A stretch of 64,000 nucleotides of DNA from an uncultured Chloroflexia bacterium. Lineage in GTDB: Bacteria > Chloroflexota > Limnocylindria > Limnocylindrales > CSP1-4. Made by a program: the position numbers and the translations under genes. The notes beneath the pieces were generated by a model that worked only from the letters and a program-made list of their open reading frames with translations, made no database searches and was not told where the DNA came from. This document shows, in pieces, positions 6,514-52,200 of this stretch (positions within the stretch are counted from its first letter, which is position 1; every line of letters begins with the position of its first letter). The DNA is taken from the NCBI GenBank assembly GCA_963749705.1, contig CAVVNQ010000010.1, positions 95,359-159,358 of the forward strand, written 5' to 3'.

Positions 6514-8334
6514 TCAGCTCTCCGAGTACGCCTTGGGCAGTGACTCGACCGTCGGCACCTTCGTCCGCAGGTCGCGCAGGGCGGCCTGGTCCATCGACGC
6601 GAGGCGCGGCAGGTCGGGCTGGTTCGTGCGCAGCAGCCGCTCGGTCAGCGTGGACAGCAGCAGCTTGTTCACCTCGGGCACGTCCATGACGCCGCGGAGG
6701 GCGTCGGCGGGGACCTCCATGAGCGTGCTCGGCCGTGAGGCCACCACGTCCGCCGTCCGCGCGCTGCCGGTGAGCGCCGCGATCTCGCCGAAGAAGTCGC
6801 CCGCGCCCATCGTCGACAGCCCGCGATAGCCACCCTCGGCATCGGGGACGCCGGCGGCGGCCTCGCCCTTGAGGATGAAGTACGCGGCGTTGGCCTGCTC
6901 GCCGTGCATGACGAGCCGGGCGCCTTCGGGGACCTCGCGAACCACCGCATCCTTGATGAACGCCGCCCGCTGCGAGGCGTTCAACAGGCTGAACGTGGCC
7001 AGCCGGCCGACCAGGCGGTCGAAGTCGGCGAGCGTCGCCGGTCGCACGACGACGTCACCCGTCACCCGCGCCGCGCGCAGCGCCGACAGCCCGCGACGCC
7101 ACTCGGCAGCCGGCCGTCCGACGCCCGGGGCGACGAGTGACGCGATGCCCACCGCGAGGGTCACCAGCGCGACGAAGCCAAGGAGCAGGCGCACGTCGAG
7201 CACGTCGGCCAGCCCGGCGCATGCCATCCCGGCCAGGAAGATCACGTCGCGCATGACGAACAGGCCGGAGAACACGCGGCCCCGCATCTCGCGCGGCGTG
7301 TTGCGCTGGAGCAGCGTCTGGCGGGCAACGGACGTCGGTGAGTTGAAGAACCCGCTGATCATCGCGAACGCGATCGCGACCCCGATCACCGGCGAGGCGG
7401 CATAGAGCAGGCTGGCGATGCCCATGCCCGCCGATCCGACGAACACCCACAGCCCGGTCTGGAGGCGGGCGCTGTAGCGGGCCATGAACAGGCTGCCCAG
7501 CACGAAGCCAACCGAGGTCAGGCCCTCCTGGATCCCGTACTCGAACTCGGTCGCGTGGAGCTCCCGGATGGCCATCGGCAGCAACAGGACGTTCCACAGC
7601 CCGAACACGAAGAAGATCGGCGCCCCGAGCAGGAACAGCGAGCGCAGCATGGGCGTGCGCGCAATGGTCATGATCCCGGACCTGAGGTTGGTGATCACCA
7701 CGCCGACCGAGGTCTCCTCCTCGACCTCGATCCTCGATCGGACGCGGAGCAGCCAGATGCAGCCGGCCGAGAACAGGAACGTGAGGGCGTCGATCCAGAA
7801 TGCCCAGTAGATGCTGAACGCCGACGCCAGCAGACCCGCACCCGCGAACCCGATCGCGGTCGAGCCGAACGAGGCGATCGAGAGGTAGGCGTTGGCCGCG
7901 GCCAGCTCCTCGTCGCTCGCGATCTCGGGGATGATGCTCTCGTAGGCGGGGTCGAAGAACTGCTTGACGCCCGCGTTGACCAGGAGCGCGACGAACAGCA
8001 GCGAGACGTCGAGCCCGATCAGGAACGGGATCGAGGCGACGATCACCGCCTGTCCGAGGTTGCTTGCGAGCATGATCGAGCGCCGGTCGAAGCGATCCAC
8101 GAACACGCCGGCGACGAGGCCCACGATCAGGCTGGGCACGGCCGTGACCATCAGCGTGACGCCGACCAGGAAGGCGGAGCCGGTCCTGTCGTAGACGTAG
8201 ATCGCGGCGGCAAGGTCGGTCAGCGACGAGCCGGCCGTGGAGACGAGCTGCGCGAGCCACATCAGCCGGAAATCGCGCTTCCTGAACACCGCGGTCGGGG
8301 AGATCGGCTGGGTGGCCGGCGTGGCCTCGCTCAT
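6514..8334 (-). CDS. MFS transporter fused to a C-terminal cyclic-nucleotide-binding domain
   Basis: GVFVDRFDRR MFS motif A and about 12 hydrophobic segments. C-terminal GDFFGEIAAL...RTADV cNMP signature. Confidence 0.9.
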   Translation of the reverse strand: MSEATPATQPISPTAVFRKRDFRLMWLAQLVSTAGSSLTDLAAAIYVYDRTGSAFLVGVTLMVTAVPSLIVGLVAGVFVDRFDRRSIMLASNLGQAVIVASIPFLIGLDVSLLFVALLVNAGVKQFFDPAYESIIPEIASDEELAAANAYLSIASFGSTAIGFAGAGLLASAFSIYWAFWIDALTFLFSAGCIWLLRVRSRIEVEEETSVGVVITNLRSGIMTIARTPMLRSLFLLGAPIFFVFGLWNVLLLPMAIRELHATEFEYGIQEGLTSVGFVLGSLFMARYSARLQTGLWVFVGSAGMGIASLLYAASPVIGVAIAFAMISGFFNSPTSVARQTLLQRNTPREMRGRVFSGLFVMRDVIFLAGMACAGLADVLDVRLLLGFVALVTLAVGIASLVAPGVGRPAAEWRRGLSALRAARVTGDVVVRPATLADFDRLVGRLATFSLLNASQRAAFIKDAVVREVPEGARLVMHGEQANAAYFILKGEAAAGVPDAEGGYRGLSTMGAGDFFGEIAALTGSARTADVVASRPSTLMEVPADALRGVMDVPEVNKLLLSTLTERLLRTNQPDLPRLASMDQAALRDLRTKVPTVESLPKAYSES

Positions 8335-8469
8335 GACCTGTCCCCGCACGGATGCCCGGTCGTGTGCCGCATTCTCGGTCGTCCCTCTGGCCAGTGCGCC
8401 TCTCTCTGCGGCAACGGGTGACGGAGCCGGGGCGCCTGGGCTGGCGGAGAGTGTACGGTCCGCGGCCCC

Positions 8470-9063
8470 TCAGCGCTGGAGGTTCACGCCCTCGAGCGCC
8501 AGCAGCTCGCGCTTGAGCGCGAGCGCCGCCTCCACGCCACCCCAGGTCGCCGCGCCGTAGCCCCCGAGCGTGCCGTCGCCGGCGATCACGCGATGGCAGG
8601 GGATCAGCAGCCCGACCGGGTTGCGGCCAACGGCGCCCCCGACAGCCCGTGCGGCGCCACGGCGGCCGATCCGGCGGGCCACCTCGCCGTAGCTTGCGAC
8701 CTGGCCGCGCGGAATGGCTCGGACGGCCCCCAGCACGAGCCGGTCCCAATCGGAGCGGTCCGAGATGTCGATGGCCACGGCGTCCAGCGGGACCGGCTCG
8801 CCGGCCATCGCGCGACCGATCAGGTCGATCGCCGTCTCGAGATGGGTCCTGGCCGTGCCCGCGGGCGGCGCGGCAAGCGGCTCCGCCAGGCGCAGCCGCC
8901 GCCGCTCGAGACCTGCCTCGAACTCGCCGCCGCTCGACAGCATCGCCACGGCGACCACGCCCCGGGGGCCGGCGGCGATCCGGACCGGGCCCCACGGTCC
9001 GTCGATCACGGCGGTCGCCAGCCCGGCGTCCTCCGGCGGTCGCTGGCGATCGCGTGGCGTCAT
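8470..9063 (-). CDS. ogt: Methylated-DNA--protein-cysteine methyltransferase
   Basis: SYGEVA, AARAVG and the IPCHRV active site. Confidence 0.9.
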   Translation of the reverse strand: MTPRDRQRPPEDAGLATAVIDGPWGPVRIAAGPRGVVAVAMLSSGGEFEAGLERRRLRLAEPLAAPPAGTARTHLETAIDLIGRAMAGEPVPLDAVAIDISDRSDWDRLVLGAVRAIPRGQVASYGEVARRIGRRGAARAVGGAVGRNPVGLLIPCHRVIAGDGTLGGYGAATWGGVEAALALKRELLALEGVNLQR

Positions 9064-9073
9064 CCGGAAATGG

Positions 9074-9102
9074 TTGCACGTGCTGGCTGGATGGGGCACA
9101 CT
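9074..9102 (+). promoter_or_regulatory. Sigma70-type promoter of the lysine leader/operon
   Basis: TTGCAC (9074-9079), 17-nt spacer, CACACT (9097-9102), with ATG at 9112. Confidence 0.6.
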
Positions 9103-9111
9103 GCGCCGGCA

Positions 9112-9192
9112 ATGTTGCGCATCACCGTCAGCTTCGACGCCAAGAAGAAGCTCTGGCGGCCCCGCCGGAAGGCTCGGGCCCTGGGGCTCTGA
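9112..9192 (+). CDS. Putative lysine-operon leader peptide MLRITVSFDAKKKLWRPRRKARALGL
   Basis: 26-aa ORF with AAG-AAG-AAG at 9142-9150, lying between the promoter and a terminator upstream of dapB. Confidence 0.7.
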   Translation: MLRITVSFDAKKKLWRPRRKARALGL

Positions 9193-9242
9193 CGGCGCGC
9201 GAGCGACGATCATCGGGGCCTCCGGGACCGGAGGCGCCGAGG

Positions 9243-9280
9243 GGCCGTGACACCGCGATGGTGCCGCGGCCTTTGTGATT
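9243..9280 (+). terminator. Attenuator terminator upstream of dapB
   Basis: Stem GGCCGTGACACC / GGTGCCGCGGCC with a 5-nt loop, followed by TTTGTGATT. Confidence 0.7.
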
Positions 9281-9326
9281 CTCGGACCTCCGGAACCCGC
9301 GCCCAAACGCGGAAGGACGTTCGAGC

Positions 9327-10073
9327 ATGCAGCTCCTCATCTTCGGCCCTGGCCGGCTGGGCGGCGCGATCGCCGGCGCGGCCACGGCCGCCGGCTGGCC
9401 GGCGCCGATCATGGTCGGCAGGTCCGGCGCCGGCCGTCTCGAGCGGCTGCCATCGGCCGATGTCGCGATCGATGCCTCCGACGGGTCGGCCGTCGCCGGC
9501 AACGTCGCCCGGGCGCTGGCGGCCGGGCACCGCTCGTTCGTGCTGGCAGCGACCGGCTGGAACGCCGATATCCCGACGGTGCGCTCGCTGCTGCTGGCAG
9601 ATGGCGCCCGGGCGGTCGTCGCCCCGAACCTGTCGCTCGGCGCGGCGCTGTTCCTGCGCCTCGTCGAGGTCGCGGCCGGCTGGTATGCGTCGGCCGGGAC
9701 GTTCGAGCCATCGATCGTGGAGTGGCATCGTCGGGGCAAGGCGGACCGGCCGTCCGGGACGGCGAGGGCGCTGGCCCGCCGGATCTCGGCCGCCGATCCG
9801 CGCTGGTCGATCGAGCCCGATGGCGATCACCGGCCACTCGAGGTCGTGGGGATCCGCGCGGGCGCGGCGCCCGGGACGCACCTCGTGACGTTCGATGGAC
9901 CGGGCGAGGTCGTCGAGCTGCGCCTCGCGGCCCGCGACCGGTCCGCATACGCGGACGGCGCGCTCGAAGCCGCCCGCTGGCTCGTCCGCGAATCGCGGGA
10001 GCCCGGCCTTCACTCGTTCGACGACGTCGTCGATGACCTGCTCGCGGCGGCTCCCGCCGCCGTCCACGCCTGA
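9327..10073 (+). CDS. dapB: 4-hydroxy-tetrahydrodipicolinate reductase
   Basis: GPGRLG, APNLSLG and EWHRRGKADRPSGTA motifs. Confidence 0.88.
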   Translation: MQLLIFGPGRLGGAIAGAATAAGWPAPIMVGRSGAGRLERLPSADVAIDASDGSAVAGNVARALAAGHRSFVLAATGWNADIPTVRSLLLADGARAVVAPNLSLGAALFLRLVEVAAGWYASAGTFEPSIVEWHRRGKADRPSGTARALARRISAADPRWSIEPDGDHRPLEVVGIRAGAAPGTHLVTFDGPGEVVELRLAARDRSAYADGALEAARWLVRESREPGLHSFDDVVDDLLAAAPAAVHA

Positions 10074-10097: not shown

Positions 10098-11111
10098 ATG
10101 ACCCGCACGACCCGACCCACCGCCCTTGCCTCGACCCACGTCCAGCCCCGCCTTCGCGGCGCGTTCACCGCGCTCGTCACGCCATACACCGCCGACGGCC
10201 GAGTCGACGAGGCTGCCTATCGCCGGCTCGTCGCATGGCAGGCCATGGCGGGCATCGACGGCCTCGTCCCGGTCGGCACGACCGGCGAGGCGCCCACGCT
10301 GTCCGCCGGCGAGCGGGAGCGCCTGATCGAGATCGCGATCACCACGATCGCCGAACGGTCGACGCGCCGGGTCCCCGTGATCGCCGGCACCGGCACCAAC
10401 GACACCCGCGCGACCATCGAGGCCACCCGCCGCGCGGCCGCCCTCGGCGCCGACGCCGCGCTGATCGTCACCCCGTACTACAACCGGCCGGACCAGCGGA
10501 TGCTCGACGCCCACTTCCGCGCGGTCGCCGACGAGGGCGGGCTGCCGATCGTCGTCTACAACGTGCCGTCGAGGACGGGCTCGAACGTCACCGCCGACAC
10601 GTTCCTGCGGCTCGCCGAGCACCCGCGCGTGATCGCGGTCAAGGAGGCGAGCGGCAACATCGAACAGATCGCGGTCATCTGCCGCGACCGGCCCCGGGAC
10701 GTCGCCGTCCTCGCCGGCGACGACGCCGCCATGCTGGCGGTGCTGGCGATGGGCGGCGACGGCGTGGTGTCCGTGGCGAGCAACGAGATCCCGGGCGACG
10801 TGGCCGCCCTCGTCCGGTCCGCGCTCGAGGGCGACTGGGCCGGGGCGCGCGCGATCCACGACCGCTGGCTGCCGTTGTTCCGGGCCAACTTCCAGGGCGC
10901 GCCCAACCCGGTTCCCGCAAAGGCCGCGATGGTCGCGATGGGGCTGCTCGAGCGCGACGACCTGCGGGCACCCCTGCTCCCGCTCGACGACGGGCCGCGC
11001 GAGCGCCTGGTCGCGCTGCTCCGATCGCTGGGGCTCGTGGACGGCGGTGGGCGCCAGCCGGTCGCCCGCTCGGTGGGGCGGACCACCGCCGATACGGCGG
11101 CCGTCGCGTGA
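10098..11111 (+). CDS. dapA: 4-hydroxy-tetrahydrodipicolinate synthase
   Basis: GTTGE, TPYYN, YNVPSRT and VKEASG motifs. Confidence 0.95.
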   Translation: MTRTTRPTALASTHVQPRLRGAFTALVTPYTADGRVDEAAYRRLVAWQAMAGIDGLVPVGTTGEAPTLSAGERERLIEIAITTIAERSTRRVPVIAGTGTNDTRATIEATRRAAALGADAALIVTPYYNRPDQRMLDAHFRAVADEGGLPIVVYNVPSRTGSNVTADTFLRLAEHPRVIAVKEASGNIEQIAVICRDRPRDVAVLAGDDAAMLAVLAMGGDGVVSVASNEIPGDVAALVRSALEGDWAGARAIHDRWLPLFRANFQGAPNPVPAKAAMVAMGLLERDDLRAPLLPLDDGPRERLVALLRSLGLVDGGGRQPVARSVGRTTADTAAVA

Positions 11112-11932
11112 CCGCGCCGTCCGTTCGCGCGGAGACCCGGTCCTCGATCCTCGACGACCTCGATGCCGGGCATCGCCGCGCCGCCGTGCCGGACTCGTCG
11201 GCACCCGGCGGCTGGCGCACCGATCCCGAGGTCAAGGCCGCGATCCTCACCTGCTTCCGCGACCGGCGCACGGTCACCTCGACCGCGGGTGGGGGCCTTG
11301 CCTTCCGTGATCGGGTGGGGCTCCCGTCCAAGCCGCTCATCGATGGTCCGCTCGCGACGGCGGCGCTCGATGCGGGCCGGCCGTGGCGCATCGTGCCCGG
11401 CGGGACCAGCATCCGTGCGGGCGTCCACCTTGGGCCGGGCGTCGTGGTGATGCCGCCATCGTTCATCAACATCGGGGCCTGGATCGGGGAGGACACCATG
11501 GTCGACTCCCACGTGCTCGTCGGCTCGTGCGCCCAGGTCGGCGCCCGGGTCCACCTCGCCGCCGGCGTGTCGATCGGGGGCGTGCTCGAGCCGCCCGGGG
11601 CCCGTCCCGTGATCGTCGAGGACGATGCCTTCGTCGGTGCGGGCTGCCGGCTCCTCGACGGGGTCCTGGTCGGGCATGGCGCGGTCATCGGGGCGGGAGT
11701 CGTGCTGACCGGGACCAGCCGCGTCTACGACCTCGTTCGGGAGCGCGTGCTGACCGGCACACCCGAAGCCCCGCTGGCCATCCCGCCGGGCGCGGTGGTC
11801 GTGCCCGGGTCCCGGCGGGTCGACGGCCCGTTTGCGGGCGAGCACGGGCTGTCCATCTCGGTCGCGCTGCTGGTCAAGGACCGCGACCCGGGTACCGATG
11901 CACGGGTCGCGCTCGAGGACGTGCTCCGGTGA
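11108..11932 (+). CDS. dapD: Tetrahydrodipicolinate N-succinyltransferase
   Basis: RIVPGG, NIGA, VGSCAQVG and IGGVLEP; hexapeptide repeats. Confidence 0.88.
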   Translation: MTAPSVRAETRSSILDDLDAGHRRAAVPDSSAPGGWRTDPEVKAAILTCFRDRRTVTSTAGGGLAFRDRVGLPSKPLIDGPLATAALDAGRPWRIVPGGTSIRAGVHLGPGVVVMPPSFINIGAWIGEDTMVDSHVLVGSCAQVGARVHLAAGVSIGGVLEPPGARPVIVEDDAFVGAGCRLLDGVLVGHGAVIGAGVVLTGTSRVYDLVRERVLTGTPEAPLAIPPGAVVVPGSRRVDGPFAGEHGLSISVALLVKDRDPGTDARVALEDVLR

Positions 11933-13371
11933 GTGCCGTCCGCCAGCCCGGGCCGGCGCCCGCCCGGAACGCTGCGCCCGTCCCGCGTCGCGGCCGGCCG
12001 CCCGCGCGCAACGAGATCCTGCGCGGCGGCCGGTTGGGCGGCCAGGATCCGGCGGCGCTCGCGGACCGGTACGGGACGCCGCTGTACGTCTATGACCTCG
12101 ACGTCGTCGCACGCCAGGTGTCGGCCCTTCGATCCGTGCTGCCGGCATCGTTCGACCTCGCCTACGCGGTCAAGGCCAACCCGAACCTTTCGGTCATGCG
12201 CCACCTGGCCGGGCTGGGGCTGGGCGCCGACGTCGCGTCGGGTGGCGAGCTGGGGCATGCGCTTCGGGCGGGGTTTGTCGCGGACCGGATCGTGTTCACA
12301 GGACCGGGCAAGCGCGACGAGGAGCTGGCAGCAGCGGTCGACGTCGGGGTTCGTGCCGTGACCGTCGAATCGCCCGGCGAGCTGCGCCGACTGGCCCGGA
12401 TCGCCGAGGGGCTCGGCCGTCGCCAGCCGATCCTGCTCCGCGCCGCCGCCACGGCGTCAGCCCCGCTCGAGCGCGTGCGCCTCGTCGGCGACGACGGCGC
12501 GGGCAAGTTCGGGATGGACCTTGTGGACGTCCGGGCGAGCGCCGCGGAGGCGATCGGGTCGTCGTGGCTCGATGTGCTCGGGCTTCACGTGTTCGGCGCC
12601 TCGAACGTGCTCGACGGCGGAGCGGTCGCCAGCCATGTCGAGGCAACGGTGCGCGCCGCCCGCGAGCTGTCGGTGGCGACCGGGTTCCGTCTCCGGCTCG
12701 TCGATGCGGGCGGCGGGCTCGGCGTTCCGTACGAGCCCCACGAGGCCGGGCTCGACCTGGCTGCCGTCGGGTCTCGCCTGGCGGCGCTCGAGGCGAGCAT
12801 GCTCAGGGACGATGTCACGAGGGAGGCCCGCGTCCTGCTCGAGCCGGGCCGGTACCTGGTGGCGCCCGCCGGCGCCTACGTGGCCAGGGTCGTCGACCGC
12901 AAGATGGTCGGCGGTCACCACGTGGTCATCGTCGACGGCGGGATCCACCATGTCCTGCGCCCGGTGCTGGTGGGCCAGGAGCATCGCGTCCGCGTCCTCT
13001 CGGGCGGTGCGACGACCACGGCCGCCCCGACCGTCATGGCCTCGACGGCCTCGGCCGCGGCCGGCCAGCGCCTTCCGGTCACGATCGCGGGGCCGCTGTG
13101 CTCGGGTCTCGACGTGCTCGCACAGGATGCGCTGTTGCCGCTGCCCGATCCCGGCGACCTGGTCGCGGTGCTCGACGTCGGGGCGTACGGGGCCACGGAG
13201 TCGATGCCGTTCTTCCTGTCGCACCCGCTCCCACCCGAGATCGCGCTGCGGGGCGGCGCCGCCTGGATCGCGCGACCGCGGATCGAGCCCGAGACGTGGC
13301 TCGCGTGGCAGGGCGACGAACCCGCCGACGCTGATCGGGCCGCCGTCGGCCGCGACACCCGCCGACGCTGA
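11929..13371 (+). CDS. lysA: Diaminopimelate decarboxylase (group IV PLP decarboxylase)
   Basis: YGTPLYVYD, YAVKAN, TGPGK, KFG, EPGRY, GPLC and GAYG motifs; operon context. Confidence 0.82.
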   Translation: MSAVRQPGPAPARNAAPVPRRGRPPARNEILRGGRLGGQDPAALADRYGTPLYVYDLDVVARQVSALRSVLPASFDLAYAVKANPNLSVMRHLAGLGLGADVASGGELGHALRAGFVADRIVFTGPGKRDEELAAAVDVGVRAVTVESPGELRRLARIAEGLGRRQPILLRAAATASAPLERVRLVGDDGAGKFGMDLVDVRASAAEAIGSSWLDVLGLHVFGASNVLDGGAVASHVEATVRAARELSVATGFRLRLVDAGGGLGVPYEPHEAGLDLAAVGSRLAALEASMLRDDVTREARVLLEPGRYLVAPAGAYVARVVDRKMVGGHHVVIVDGGIHHVLRPVLVGQEHRVRVLSGGATTTAAPTVMASTASAAAGQRLPVTIAGPLCSGLDVLAQDALLPLPDPGDLVAVLDVGAYGATESMPFFLSHPLPPEIALRGGAAWIARPRIEPETWLAWQGDEPADADRAAVGRDTRRR

Positions 13372-14570: not shown

Positions 14571-17297
14571 ATGAGCACGAACACCGCGTCCCTCCCCACT
14601 GCGCCCCAGCCGATCGAGATCGTCCTCCCGATCGAGGGCATGACCTGCGCGTCATGCGTCAACCGGATCGAGCGGTTCCTCAACAAGACCCCCGGCGTCG
14701 AGCAGGCCGCGGTCAACCTCGCCACCGAGCGAGCGTCCGTGTTCGTGGACCCGGCGCTCGTCGGGCGCGACGAGCTGGTCCGGGCGGTCGAAGCAGCCGG
14801 CTACGAGGTCAAGGCCGAGCCGTCCGCGGACGTGGGGGCCATGGCCACCTCGCTCGAGGCGGAGGTCAGCGCCGACGATCTCGAGCGCGAGCATGCGCAG
14901 CGCCAGACGCTGTTCCAGGCGCTGGTCGCCATCGCGTCCGCTGTCGTGATCATGGTCCTGATGTTCGCCCCCCAGACGCTGGTGGCGATGGAGGACCTCA
15001 ACAAGCTGATCCTGTGGCCGGCGACGTTCATCCAGTTCTGGGCCGGTGGCCGGTTCTACCGGGCCGCCTGGCGGGCCGCACGACACGGCGGCGCGACGAT
15101 GGACACGCTGGTGGCCGTCGGCACCTCGGCCGCCTGGGGGTACTCCGTGTTCGTCACGATGTGGCCCGGGATCATCCACCAGGCTGGGCTGCGCGCCGAG
15201 TCCTACTTCGACAGCGCCACGATCATCATCGGCCTGATCCTGCTCGGCAGGTGGCTCGAGCAACGTGCCAAGGGCCGTACGACCGGCGCCATCCGGCGGC
15301 TGGTCGGGCTCCAGGCAACGACCGCGCGCCGGCTGCGAAACGGCGTGGAGGAGGACGTCGACCTCGCGGTGGTCGTCCCGGGCGACCTGCTGCGGGTGCG
15401 CCCGGGCGACAAGGTGCCGGTGGACGGGGTCGTCGTCGAAGGCACGTCACCGGTCGACGAATCGATGCTCACCGGGGAGCCGCTCCCGAGGACGAAGGCG
15501 ACCGGCGACGAGGTCATCGGTGCCACCCTCAACACGACCGGCTCGTTCGTCATGCGCGCCACGCGCGTCGGCCGCGACACCGCGCTCGCCCGGATCGTGG
15601 AGCTCGTCCAGCGAGCCCAGGGATCGAAGGCGCCGATCCAGCGGCTTGCCGACCGGATCAGCGAGGTGTTCGTGCCCGCGGTGATCGTCGTTGCCGCGCT
15701 CACGTTCGTGCTGTGGTTCGTGCTGGGTCCCGAGCCGCGGCTGACGCTCTCGCTCACCGCGTTCATCGGCGTCGTCGTCATCGCGTGCCCGTGCGCCATG
15801 GGCCTCGCGACCCCGACCGCGATCATGGTCGGCACCGGCAAGGGCGCCGAGGCCGGGATCCTCGTCCGCGGCGGCGAGGCGCTCGAGATCGCCGGGCGGA
15901 TCGACACCGTGGTGATGGACAAGACCGGCACGTTGACGCTGGGACGCCCGGCGGTGTCGTCGGTCATCCACGTGCCGCACCCGGCGACCGGGTCGGGGCT
16001 CACGCCGGACCGGGTGCTGGACCTCGCGGGCTCGCTCGAGACGGGCAGCGAGCACCCGCTGGGCGAGGCGATCGTGCGCAGGGCGCGCGAGACCGAGCTC
16101 GGCTTCCACAAGGTCGAGGGGTTCGAGGCGGTCGTCGGACGCGGCGTCCGCGGAACCGTCGACGGGTCCGCGGTGATCGTCGGCAGCCGGCGGCTGATGG
16201 CGGAGGCGGGCATCGACATTTCGGCGCTGCGCGCACCCGCGGAGGCGGCCGCCGCCGAGGGTGGCACGGTCGTATACGTCGGGATCGACGGCACGGCGGC
16301 CGCGCTGATCGCCGTCTCGGACCCGGTCAAGCCCGAGTCGGCTGCGGCCGTCCACGACCTCCGTGAGGCCGGCATCGACGTATGGCTGCTGACCGGTGAC
16401 GCGAGGGTCACGGCCGAGGCCGTCGCACGCCGGGTCGGGATCGCGCCGGACCACGTGATCGCCGAGGTGCTTCCCGAGGACAAGGACGCGACGATCGGGC
16501 GCCTCCAGGCCGACGGGCACCGGGTGGCCATGGTCGGTGATGGCATCAACGATGCGCCGGCGCTCGCCCGGGCCGATCTCGGCGTCGCGATCGGCACCGG
16601 TGCCGACGTTGCGATCGAGGCATCGGATGTCACGCTCGTGGGCGGGGACCCGCGCCTGGTGGCATCGGCCATCGCGCTGTCGCGAGCCAGCGTTCGGGTG
16701 ATCCGGCAGAACCTGTTCTGGGCGTTCGCCTACAACGTCGTGCTGATCCCGATCGCGATGGGCGCCCTGTACCCGGCATTCGGCATCGCGCTCAACCCGG
16801 CGATGGCCGCCGGCGCCATGGCCCTGTCATCGGTCAGCGTGGTGACCAACTCGCTCCGGCTGCGGGGGATCGACGTCCGGCCCGGGCACGTGGCCCAGCT
16901 GCGGCGCGGTCCGCTCGGGCTTGCGCGGGATGCCGTGTTCCTGGGTGGCGTCGCCGTGCTCGGGCTGGGCCTCGCCGGCGGGGTGCTGGCGGCCGACCGC
17001 GCGATCGATGCCGGCCTGCCGCACGTGGACGTCACCGCGCGCGACATGCGCTTCGTGCCCGCCGACCTGCACGTCACGGCGGGCGAGTGGGTGGTCCTCG
17101 AGTTCACGAACCGGGACACGGTCGTCCACGACTGGATGATCGAGGGGGTCGCGAACCTCGACGTCCCGGCGCGCCCCGGCCAGACGTCCCACCTCCGGTT
17201 CATGCTCGATACGCCCGGGACCTATCGGGTCATGTGCTCGATCCCCGGCCACGCCGCGGCGGGCATGGTCGGCACCCTGACCGTCGTCCCGGGTTGA
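14571..17297 (+). CDS. copA: Cu(I)-translocating P1B ATPase with a C-terminal cupredoxin domain
   Basis: GMTCASC HMA, TGE, CPC, DKTGT, SEHP, GDGIND, YN and MALSS; C-terminal H...[11 protein letters not shown] type-1 copper motif. Confidence 0.93.
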
Positions 17298-52125: not shown

Positions 52126-52200
52126 CCACGAAACGGCACACCCGTCGCGAGGCGGGGCCGCAAAGCCACGGGACTCTCAGAGTCAGCCGGGTTGCCGAAT
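52126..52200 (+). ncRNA. Cyclic di-GMP-I (GEMM-I) riboswitch
   Basis: GGCACACCCGTC-GCGA-GGCGGGGCCGCAAAGCCACGGG...CAGCCGGGTTGCCG matches the class-I two-hairpin architecture with a GNRA loop. Confidence 0.85.

Follow-up and report, generated by a model that had tools for sequence, protein, structure and literature searches.

Control of the lysine-biosynthesis operon

How is lysine synthesis controlled in a bacterium whose genome yields no recognizable lysine riboswitch? The question is raised by a 64,000-nt stretch of DNA (hereafter the window) from an uncultured Chloroflexia bacterium of the Limnocylindrales (GenBank assembly GCA_963749705.1, contig CAVVNQ010000010.1, positions 95,359 to 159,358), in which the genes dapB-dapA-dapD-lysA follow a leader that contains a short open reading frame (ORF), a run of lysine codons and a predicted transcription terminator. 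Control of lysine and diaminopimelate (DAP) genes is usually credited to the L-box riboswitch or to protein regulators, and the classical leader-peptide attenuators are the enterobacterial trpL, hisL, leuL, thrL, ilvL and pheL. Our analysis of sequences and modelled folds suggests that this leader is a ribosome-mediated (leader-peptide) transcription attenuator that senses the supply of charged lysyl-tRNA and controls dapB-dapA-dapD-lysA. We give this reading a probability of roughly 0.7.

A first-pass annotation, made from the letters of the DNA, had proposed such an attenuator from a promoter, a frame with lysine codons, a hairpin, a terminator and a pairing between the segment that follows the lysine codons and the 5′ arm of the terminator. 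All the elements that it listed were found in the sequence, and folding reproduced both the hairpin at 9213-9240 and the terminator. What was computed comprises the parts of the leader and how far they are conserved, the coding signatures of the frame, and two alternative folds, each with covariation; these results are presented below before the mechanism that they suggest. Coordinates of all features are collected in Table 1.

A conserved reading frame carries the lysine codons

The leader of dapB-dapA-dapD-lysA begins with a short ORF (9112-9192). DapB homologues were detected in 20 of the 24 other genomes of the genus. Among the 21 genus loci examined, 19 possess a short frame in which two or more Lys codons follow each other, and the remaining two read KRK. 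The Lys patch is located at -185 to -195 from the dapB ATG in 17 of these 19 loci; in L018 and L019, where the dapB match is fragmentary, it is found at -418 and -262.

An in-frame ORF joins the start codon to the conserved part of the leader in all 80 distinct copies. The start codon lies 10-16 codons before a conserved W/R anchor codon, and is ATG in 77 copies and GTG, at the same place, in the other 3. Start-to-anchor distances fall into classes of 14, 13, 15, 10, 16 and 11 codons; the insertions and deletions in this otherwise unconserved 5′ part therefore preserve the frame. Between -51 and -12, ATG triplets are in-frame 84 times and off-frame 4 times. Over 578 variable codons of the leader frame, the GC content at the three codon positions (GC1/GC2/GC3) is 0.56/0.37/0.89, with a GC3 of 0.90 in dapB itself, and it is flat (0.63-0.66) in the 30 nt upstream of the frame. 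The lysine-codon frame of the first-pass annotation is thus conserved in relatives and bears coding signatures.

The promoter boxes proposed upstream of the frame are present and conserved in relatives. In 75 copies a -35/-10 pair is recognizable, and its -10 box ends 6-11 nt ahead of the start codon (9 nt in 47 of the 75). Relatives have TTGCAT or TTGACA, followed by CATACT, CACACT, TATCGT and similar boxes, and a good TTGACA-17/18-TATNGT promoter precedes the leader in more distant genera. With 9 nt between the end of the -10 box and the ATG of the leader, the transcript would be leaderless or nearly so; no Shine-Dalgarno sequence occurs upstream of this ATG. From the placement of the start codon behind the -10 box, the frame-preserving indels and the GC3 of 0.89, we infer that the transcript opens with this frame and that ribosomes translate it as a leaderless ORF. 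In relatives it ends in a UGA-C or UAG-G context, and the stop position shifts by three codons between genera. In one metagenome locus (L266), CAG replaces the TAG stop of its relatives and the frame runs on through the second hairpin of the leader (hairpin B, see below) into the terminator loop; this locus would either depart from the attenuator design or reflect a sequencing variant.

The frame is enriched in codons for the end product of the operon. Lysine accounts for 30 of 3006 residues (1.0%) in seven neighbouring proteins, and the leader frame contains three lysine codons in a row. In the 6 codons that precede the anchor, 47 of 77 copies have three Lys codons and 30 have two, and these codons are AAG 198 times and AAA 3 times. 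The patch reads KKK, KQK, KSK, KAK, KRK, RKK, GKK, KPKSK or KK in relatives: the Lys codons are retained, and those that separate them are variable (Q, S, A, P, R). A fourth Lys codon, also counted by the first-pass annotation, is indeed present (AAG, 9169-9171), but it lies in the loop of the first hairpin of the leader (hairpin A) and is not conserved: K, E, T, Q or M is found at that place in relatives. The 3′ half of the frame seems to be conserved as a peptide (WRPCREARALGL), but its variable codons change pairwise in a way that keeps the stem of hairpin A. Such codon-pair covariation is observed at columns 58:69 (UA 43, AU 13), 59:68 and 60:67 (CG 71, UA 6). The constraint on this half of the frame is therefore on the RNA and not on the peptide.

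The leader accompanies dapB throughout the family

A BLAST search with positions 9135-9300 recovered this 166-nt core, at E <= 0.01, in 192 of 301 genomes and 41 of 49 genera of the family; the tally counts three unpublished genomes (G121, G238 and G231) that were used in no further analysis. A sample of the class (n = 401) was searched with a cut-off of E <= 1e-6. The family itself gave 64 positive genomes out of 137 and a second family 1 out of 153, and the core was found in none of the genomes of the other three families sampled (0/92, 0/16 and 0/2). In the second family (f4), a dapB of this type occurs in 4 of 61 genomes, all four of which have the leader. In a sister family with small genomes (G025-G040, 1.0-1.4 Mb), this type of dapB was detected in 1 of 16 genomes, by a weak match. 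Identity within the genus is 81-92% for the leader DNA, as compared to 67-81% for the DapB proteins.

All but one of the 119 leader copies that we collected precede dapB, and the second copies present in two genomes also lie before dapB paralogues. The one other copy (L102, G193:C33:116500-119200) is a degenerate second copy that has kept the frame and hairpins A and B, is devoid of the terminator 3′ arm and the U tail, and precedes a deaminase-like ORF. A wider regulon was considered and set aside: no other lysine gene was noticed behind any leader copy. A 17-mer scan of the genome collection gave, among the matches listed (at least 120), 25 true leaders, most of the listed matches being chance occurrences in GC-rich genomes.

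The leader is predicted to adopt two mutually exclusive folds

The region 9105-9330 folds with a minimum free energy of -121.1 kcal/mol (z = -3.47), and none of 200 shuffled sequences folded as well. Four elements make up this fold: hairpins at about 9146-9190, at 9213-9240 and at 9281-9325, and a stem at 9241-9273 that runs into UUUGUGAUU. RNAalifold applied to the MAFFT alignment returned the terminator but, of hairpin A, just the upper part; per-sequence folds were needed to derive hairpin B and the alternative fold. We call OFF the fold made of hairpin A, hairpin B and the terminator, and scored it on an alignment of 78 leaders. In the OFF fold, 88.3% of the alignment cells are paired, against 37-53% when the partners are slid, and 52 cells show a double change, against 23.7 in shuffled alignments, with none of 500 shuffles reaching 52. 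Hairpin A (OFF helix 1) is paired in 91.9% of cells and has 6 pairs with changes on both sides.

The third OFF helix is the terminator stem, with 4 pairs changed on both sides. A terminator scan found a single site (inner stem 9253-9269) where 0.1 were expected by chance, placing a computationally predicted intrinsic terminator between the leader ORF and the first gene of the operon. The 12 alignment columns that follow the stem contain 4-8 T in all 78 sequences. The terminator of the first-pass annotation is in this way conserved both in its stem, through compensatory changes, and in its T-rich tail. The leader lies in a divergent intergenic gap of 263 nt between ogt and dapB (9064-9326), and a plus-strand terminator inside this gap therefore cannot be the end of the upstream gene.

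The alternative, or ON, fold was obtained from per-sequence folds in which a ribosome masked part of the leader. Here the region of hairpin A pairs with hairpin B and with the 5′ arm of the terminator, and 93.3% of cells are paired, against 38-61% with slid partners. One of its helices (ON helix 3, 9183-9192:9213-9222) is paired in 90.4% of cells and has 4 pairs with changes on both sides. In the antiterminator helix, GCGGCCCC (9156-9163, hereafter the A arm) forms 8 bp with GGGGCCGU (9241-9248); this helix is paired in 96.3% of cells and cannot coexist with the terminator. Conservation in the leader is highest in the columns of the proximal terminator stem and of the A arm, and the distal terminator stem compensates freely. 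The invariance of these two segments is informative in its own right.

The antiterminator pairing was then followed through 119 distinct leaders, which comprise the main set, the second family, a species-representative collection and metagenomes. In 98 of them, an A arm reading GCGGCCC faces a terminator 5′ arm reading GGGCCGC. The same terminator arm faces GCGGUCC in 10 copies, GCGGCCU in 2, GUGGCCC in 1 and, with one A.C mismatch, GCGACCC in 1; in the remaining 7, GCGGUCC faces GGACCGC. The pairing is intact in all but one of the 119 leaders, and none of them sets a terminator-arm A against a C of the A arm. Where the terminator arm carries an A, its own 3′ partner carries a U. The series C-G, U.G, U-A is the path expected if both pairings are under selection. 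The antiterminator that the first-pass annotation had drawn is, across these leaders, conserved and covarying.

A ribosome at the lysine codons may favour the antiterminator

The first-pass annotation had supposed that a ribosome stalled at the Lys codons leaves the antiterminator arm free. It had not noticed hairpin A, in which this arm is sequestered when no ribosome is stalled. In the unstalled state the A arm is the 5′ strand of hairpin A, a strong hairpin the lower stem of which reaches the Lys codons. For the switch to occur, a stalled ribosome would have to melt this lower stem.

Folding of complete leaders did not separate the ribosome states and was replaced by folding at the decision point: the transcript was cut before the terminator 3′ arm, and the partner of the terminator 5′ arm was scored in 77 copies. 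Without a ribosome, 15 of 77 copies have the terminator arm on the A arm (mean probability 0.18). A mask extending 2 nt past the last Lys codon raises this number to all 77 copies, one of 4 nt gives 76 and one of 6 nt gives 61. When the first Lys codon is placed in the A site, the count is 74 of 77. Up to a mask of 6 nt, the predicted folds shift to the antiterminator, as the supposition requires. If the last Lys codon occupies the A site, 12 nt separate the first P-site base from the beginning of the A arm, a distance that corresponds to the edge of the mRNA channel of the ribosome. The modelled stall geometry is thus compatible with the leader-peptide model, but at the edge of the ribosome footprint.

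We infer from these results that the frame is translated, that the hairpin terminates transcription, that the switch operates in the direction described here and that lysine is the signal. The transcript would begin at the ATG of the leader or no more than about 3 nt away from it, and a 70S ribosome would load on the leaderless 26-codon frame. With plentiful lysine, the ribosome would reach the UGA and depart, hairpin A, hairpin B and the terminator with its U tail would form, and RNA polymerase would stop before dapB. When lysyl-tRNA is scarce, a ribosome stalled at AAG AAG AAG (9142-9150) would melt the lower stem of hairpin A. This would release the 3′ strand (9183-9192) for pairing with positions 9213-9222, the 5′ arm of hairpin B, and regions A and B would zip up into one long duplex. 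In this duplex the A arm (9156-9163) would take the 5′ arm of the terminator (9241-9248), the terminator would be blocked and the operon would be transcribed.

Evidence against the attenuator and alternative explanations

Several of our results weigh against this reading. A consensus promoter scan scored no sigma-70-like site at the proposed promoter (and none in the window), because CACACT matches TATAAT at just 3 of 6 positions; the promoter call relies on the conservation of its boxes in relatives. The sensor would consist of merely two Lys codons in 30 of 77 copies, and some members of the genus have Arg for Lys at one of the three positions (RKK, KRK). Covariation in the ON fold is weak on the main alignment, the arms being nearly invariant: 16 double-change cells were counted against 11.4 in shuffled alignments, and 31 of 500 shuffles reach this value. 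The tested structures were moreover derived from the very sequences on which they were tested. The 119 leaders include 37 metagenome loci that were picked for the U variant of the A arm, and the seven sequences with the compensated U-A pair are interrelated, so that they probably represent one or few evolutionary events.

Other difficulties come from the folding. When the complete terminator is present, equilibrium folding favours it whatever the ribosome state (P(T) > 0.5 in 68-77 of 77 copies), so that a switch would have to be kinetic, which is also the case for the classical attenuators. At the decision point, masks that extend further past the last Lys codon abolish the effect, the terminator arm being found on the A arm in 5 of 77 copies with 8 nt, in 3 with 10 nt and in none with 13 nt. 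The effect vanishes because these masks cover the A arm itself, and the result hinges on the assumed edge of the ribosome. Finally, a ribosome parked at the stop codon also puts the terminator arm on the A arm (55 of 77 copies), so that termination under lysine-rich conditions would require fast release at the stop.

Four other explanations were weighed against the attenuator. The leader could be a new riboswitch, or a protein-bound RNA, that directly senses lysine or a metabolite of the DAP pathway, the frame being incidental or an aid to folding. As in terminator-type riboswitches, the leader combines a GNRA-capped covarying hairpin with two alternative folds; its nucleotides are better conserved than the dapB coding sequence; and the lineage has no detectable L-box. 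A check for the lysine riboswitch, which the first-pass annotation had proposed, was negative. L-box (RF00168) was not found in the 3.6-Mb assembly of the host (88% complete) by a search that was positive in 4 control genomes. At the gathering threshold, the only Rfam match in the window was a c-di-GMP-I-GGC riboswitch elsewhere, and a permissive Rfam scan (E <= 10) of 8900-9500 returned three chance-level matches to unrelated small RNA models (E >= 2.9). Comparison with T-box and with the Trp, His, Leu, Thr and Phe leaders of Rfam 15 likewise gave no assignment to any of these classes. A directly sensing RNA would, however, leave unexplained a start codon that does not vary and keeps a fixed spacing to the -10 box, the frame-preserving indels and the GC3 of 0.89 in an otherwise unconserved 5′ part, and the two or three Lys codons retained amid changing neighbours. 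Moreover, conservation is concentrated in the switching stems and the single-stranded linkers vary between genera, unlike what is seen in the core of an aptamer. We regard a direct RNA sensor as unlikely.

It is similarly improbable, in our view, that the frame is translated and controls the terminator in response to a signal other than lysyl-tRNA, such as general translation capacity, the availability of 70S ribosomes for leaderless initiation, or an arrest of the nascent peptide at or near the stop, as in tnaC or speFL. A ribosome held at the stop does give the antiterminator in silico (55/77), the stop contexts are UGA-C or UAG-G, and the K to R changes seen in some copies keep the charge of a very basic peptide. 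Against this, the C-terminal residues change together with the RNA stem (C..A, S..T, Y..V, F..E), which leaves the peptide itself unconserved, and the stop position varies by three codons between genera. The Lys codons alone are kept throughout, and the regulated genes are all lysine/DAP genes.

The logic could also be reversed, with a ribosome at the last Lys codon covering the antiterminator arm and lysine shortage raising termination. Masks of 8-13 nt do cover the A arm and leave the terminator arm free, but starvation would halt the ribosome at the first Lys codon before it reaches the last one, and there the arm is clear (74 of 77 copies), and shutting off lysine synthesis during lysine shortage would be physiologically senseless; we consider this version very improbable. 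A chance coincidence of ORF, hairpins and T-run in intergenic DNA whose GC-richness favours strong folds and many open frames is excluded for practical purposes by the conservation of the 166-nt core in 192 of 301 family genomes, before dapB save for one degenerate copy, and runs counter to the z of -3.47 and to the covariation of both stems.

A possible second level of control

An extension of the attenuator model was suggested by three GGAGG-like segments, located in the hairpin A loop, in the 3′ arm of hairpin B and in the dapB Shine-Dalgarno sequence, and by two CCUCC segments, one in the 5′ arm of hairpin B and one past the terminator at 9288-9292. The latter is complementary to both the dapB Shine-Dalgarno sequence and the 3′ arm of hairpin B. 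A single ribosome stall on the leaderless sensor ORF might thus set both transcription and dapB translation: once refolding has abolished the terminator, the 3′ arm of hairpin B would become available to the post-terminator CCUCC, and the dapB ribosome-binding site would be released. The complementarity co-changes between genera (CCGGAGG/CCUCCGG here, GGAGGUCC/GGACCUCC in another; L070, L046 and L063 examined), and in 66 relatives a stall mask moves the partner of the post-terminator CCUCC towards hairpin B (0.28 to 0.55). Opening of the Shine-Dalgarno sequence upon stalling found no support in silico: in these relatives it is mostly paired, with a mean unpaired probability of 0.24 versus 0.25 under the mask. 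We consider a two-level switch unlikely.

Relation to known regulatory leaders

The leader has several traits in common with the enterobacterial attenuators: a short ORF rich in codons of the end product, a 1:2 hairpin beginning at the regulatory codons, a (here predicted) intrinsic terminator, and a competing helix that captures the 5′ arm of this terminator. It differs from them in its amino acid, lysine, in an apparently leaderless leader ORF lacking a Shine-Dalgarno sequence, and in the presence of an extra hairpin (B) between the 1:2 hairpin and the terminator. In its ON state, the A region would pair over its whole length with hairpin B and the terminator arm to form one long duplex, and the terminator arm would be taken by the 5′ and not by the 3′ strand of the first hairpin. 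It matched no Rfam leader family and shows no similarity to these leaders in sequence or model. Like L-box (RF00168), which often acts through a terminator, it sits before lysine/DAP genes. In contrast to the five-helix aptamer of L-box, which has no match in the window or genome, it contains a conserved frame that looks translated.

A leader peptide with lysine codons is said to attenuate the alpha-aminoadipate (AAA) lysine cluster of Thermus thermophilus, in work attributed to Tsubouchi and colleagues (J Biol Chem, 2005). That leader would likewise combine tandem lysine codons, a short leader peptide and attenuation of a lysine-biosynthesis cluster, and would differ in its pathway (AAA and not DAP), in phylum and in the leader itself. 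If so, lysine sensing by a leader peptide is not unprecedented and the claim to novelty is tempered accordingly.

Full-text literature searches turned up no description of a lysine or DAP leader-peptide attenuator, and the passages retrieved suggest at most a possible Thr/Lys leader in Sinorhizobium. For the leaderless design, the closest match found is that of mycobacteria, where leaderless short ORFs encoding polycysteine are reported to be cysteine-responsive attenuators (bioRxiv 10.1101/834739). These too place consecutive codons of one amino acid before the genes of its metabolism, with another amino acid and in another phylum. The principle of the attenuator proposed here is textbook knowledge; its lysine version is uncatalogued and absent from Rfam 15.

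The locus and its surroundings

The genes of the locus and the elements of the leader are listed in Table 1. The start of the lysA-like gene lies somewhere between 11933 and 12076. The GC content of the window is 71%.

Table 1. Coordinates and supporting evidence for the leader elements and the flanking genes (positions within the window).
Feature	Position	Strand	Basis
Putative promoter: -35 TTGCAC (9074-9079), 17-nt spacer, -10 CACACT (9097-9102)	9074-9102	+	sequence; conserved in relatives
Leader ORF, 26 codons + TGA (9190-9192), ATG at 9112, MLRITVSFDAKKKLWRPRRKARALGL	9112-9192	+	sequence; conserved in relatives
Three consecutive Lys codons AAG AAG AAG, proposed regulatory codons	9142-9150	+	sequence
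Hairpin A (1:2 hairpin): lower stem 9150-9156/9181-9187, upper stem 9158-9166/9171-9180, loop GGAA 9167-9170	9150-9187	+	folding and alignment
Antiterminator 5′ arm GCGGCCCC, partner 9241-9248	9156-9163	+	folding, alignment
Hairpin A lower-stem 3′ strand including the stop codon, GGGGCUCUGA; alternative partner 9213-9222	9183-9192	+	folding, alignment
Hairpin B, GCCUCCG/CGGAGGC core	9213-9240	+	folding; OFF helix 2, 84.7% of cells paired
Predicted terminator stem-loop, 5′ arm 9241-9248 common to the antiterminator; T-rich tail 9272-9283	9241-9273	+	folding, terminator scan
Hairpin pairing CCUCC 9288-9292 with the dapB Shine-Dalgarno GGAAGGA 9311-9317	9281-9325	+	folding
ogt-type methylated-DNA-protein-cysteine methyltransferase gene	5′ end at 9063	-	codon-position GC; TIGR00589, 84 bits
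dapB (4-hydroxy-tetrahydrodipicolinate reductase)	9327-10073	+	Pfam DapB_C 5.7e-25; TIGR00036, 91 bits, below cut-off
dapA	10098-11111	+	TIGR00674, 303 bits, above cut-off
dapD (tetrahydrodipicolinate N-succinyltransferase)	11108-11932	+	NF008808, 245 bits, above cut-off
lysA-like pyridoxal-phosphate (PLP) decarboxylase gene	12076-13371	+	Pfam Orn_Arg_deC_N and Orn_DAP_Arg_deC; TIGR01048, 256 bits, below cut-off

Three other features of the window were recorded. The c-di-GMP-I-GGC riboswitch (RF03167) lies at 52126-52200 on the plus strand and scores 63 bits against a gathering score of 59. On the plus strand at 14571-17297, a P-type heavy-metal ATPase (E1-E2_ATPase, HMA) is fused to a C-terminal cupredoxin (plastocyanin-like) domain. 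On the minus strand at 6514-8349, a major-facilitator transporter and a cyclic-nucleotide-binding domain form one fused protein.

Implications

An abundant, uncultured Chloroflexota lineage of soil and freshwater, with no detectable L-box, appears to use a leader peptide on a leaderless transcript to control its lysine genes. If this is true, a lysine-specific family would be added to the leader-peptide attenuators and would merit an Rfam entry. The leader would also serve as an annotation marker for a small translated ORF that is missed by gene callers, and would provide a compact lysine-responsive genetic part with well-defined switching helices. It would further indicate that two or three codons can suffice as a sensor where the amino acid is rare, as in this genome of 71% GC, lysine representing here 1% of residues.

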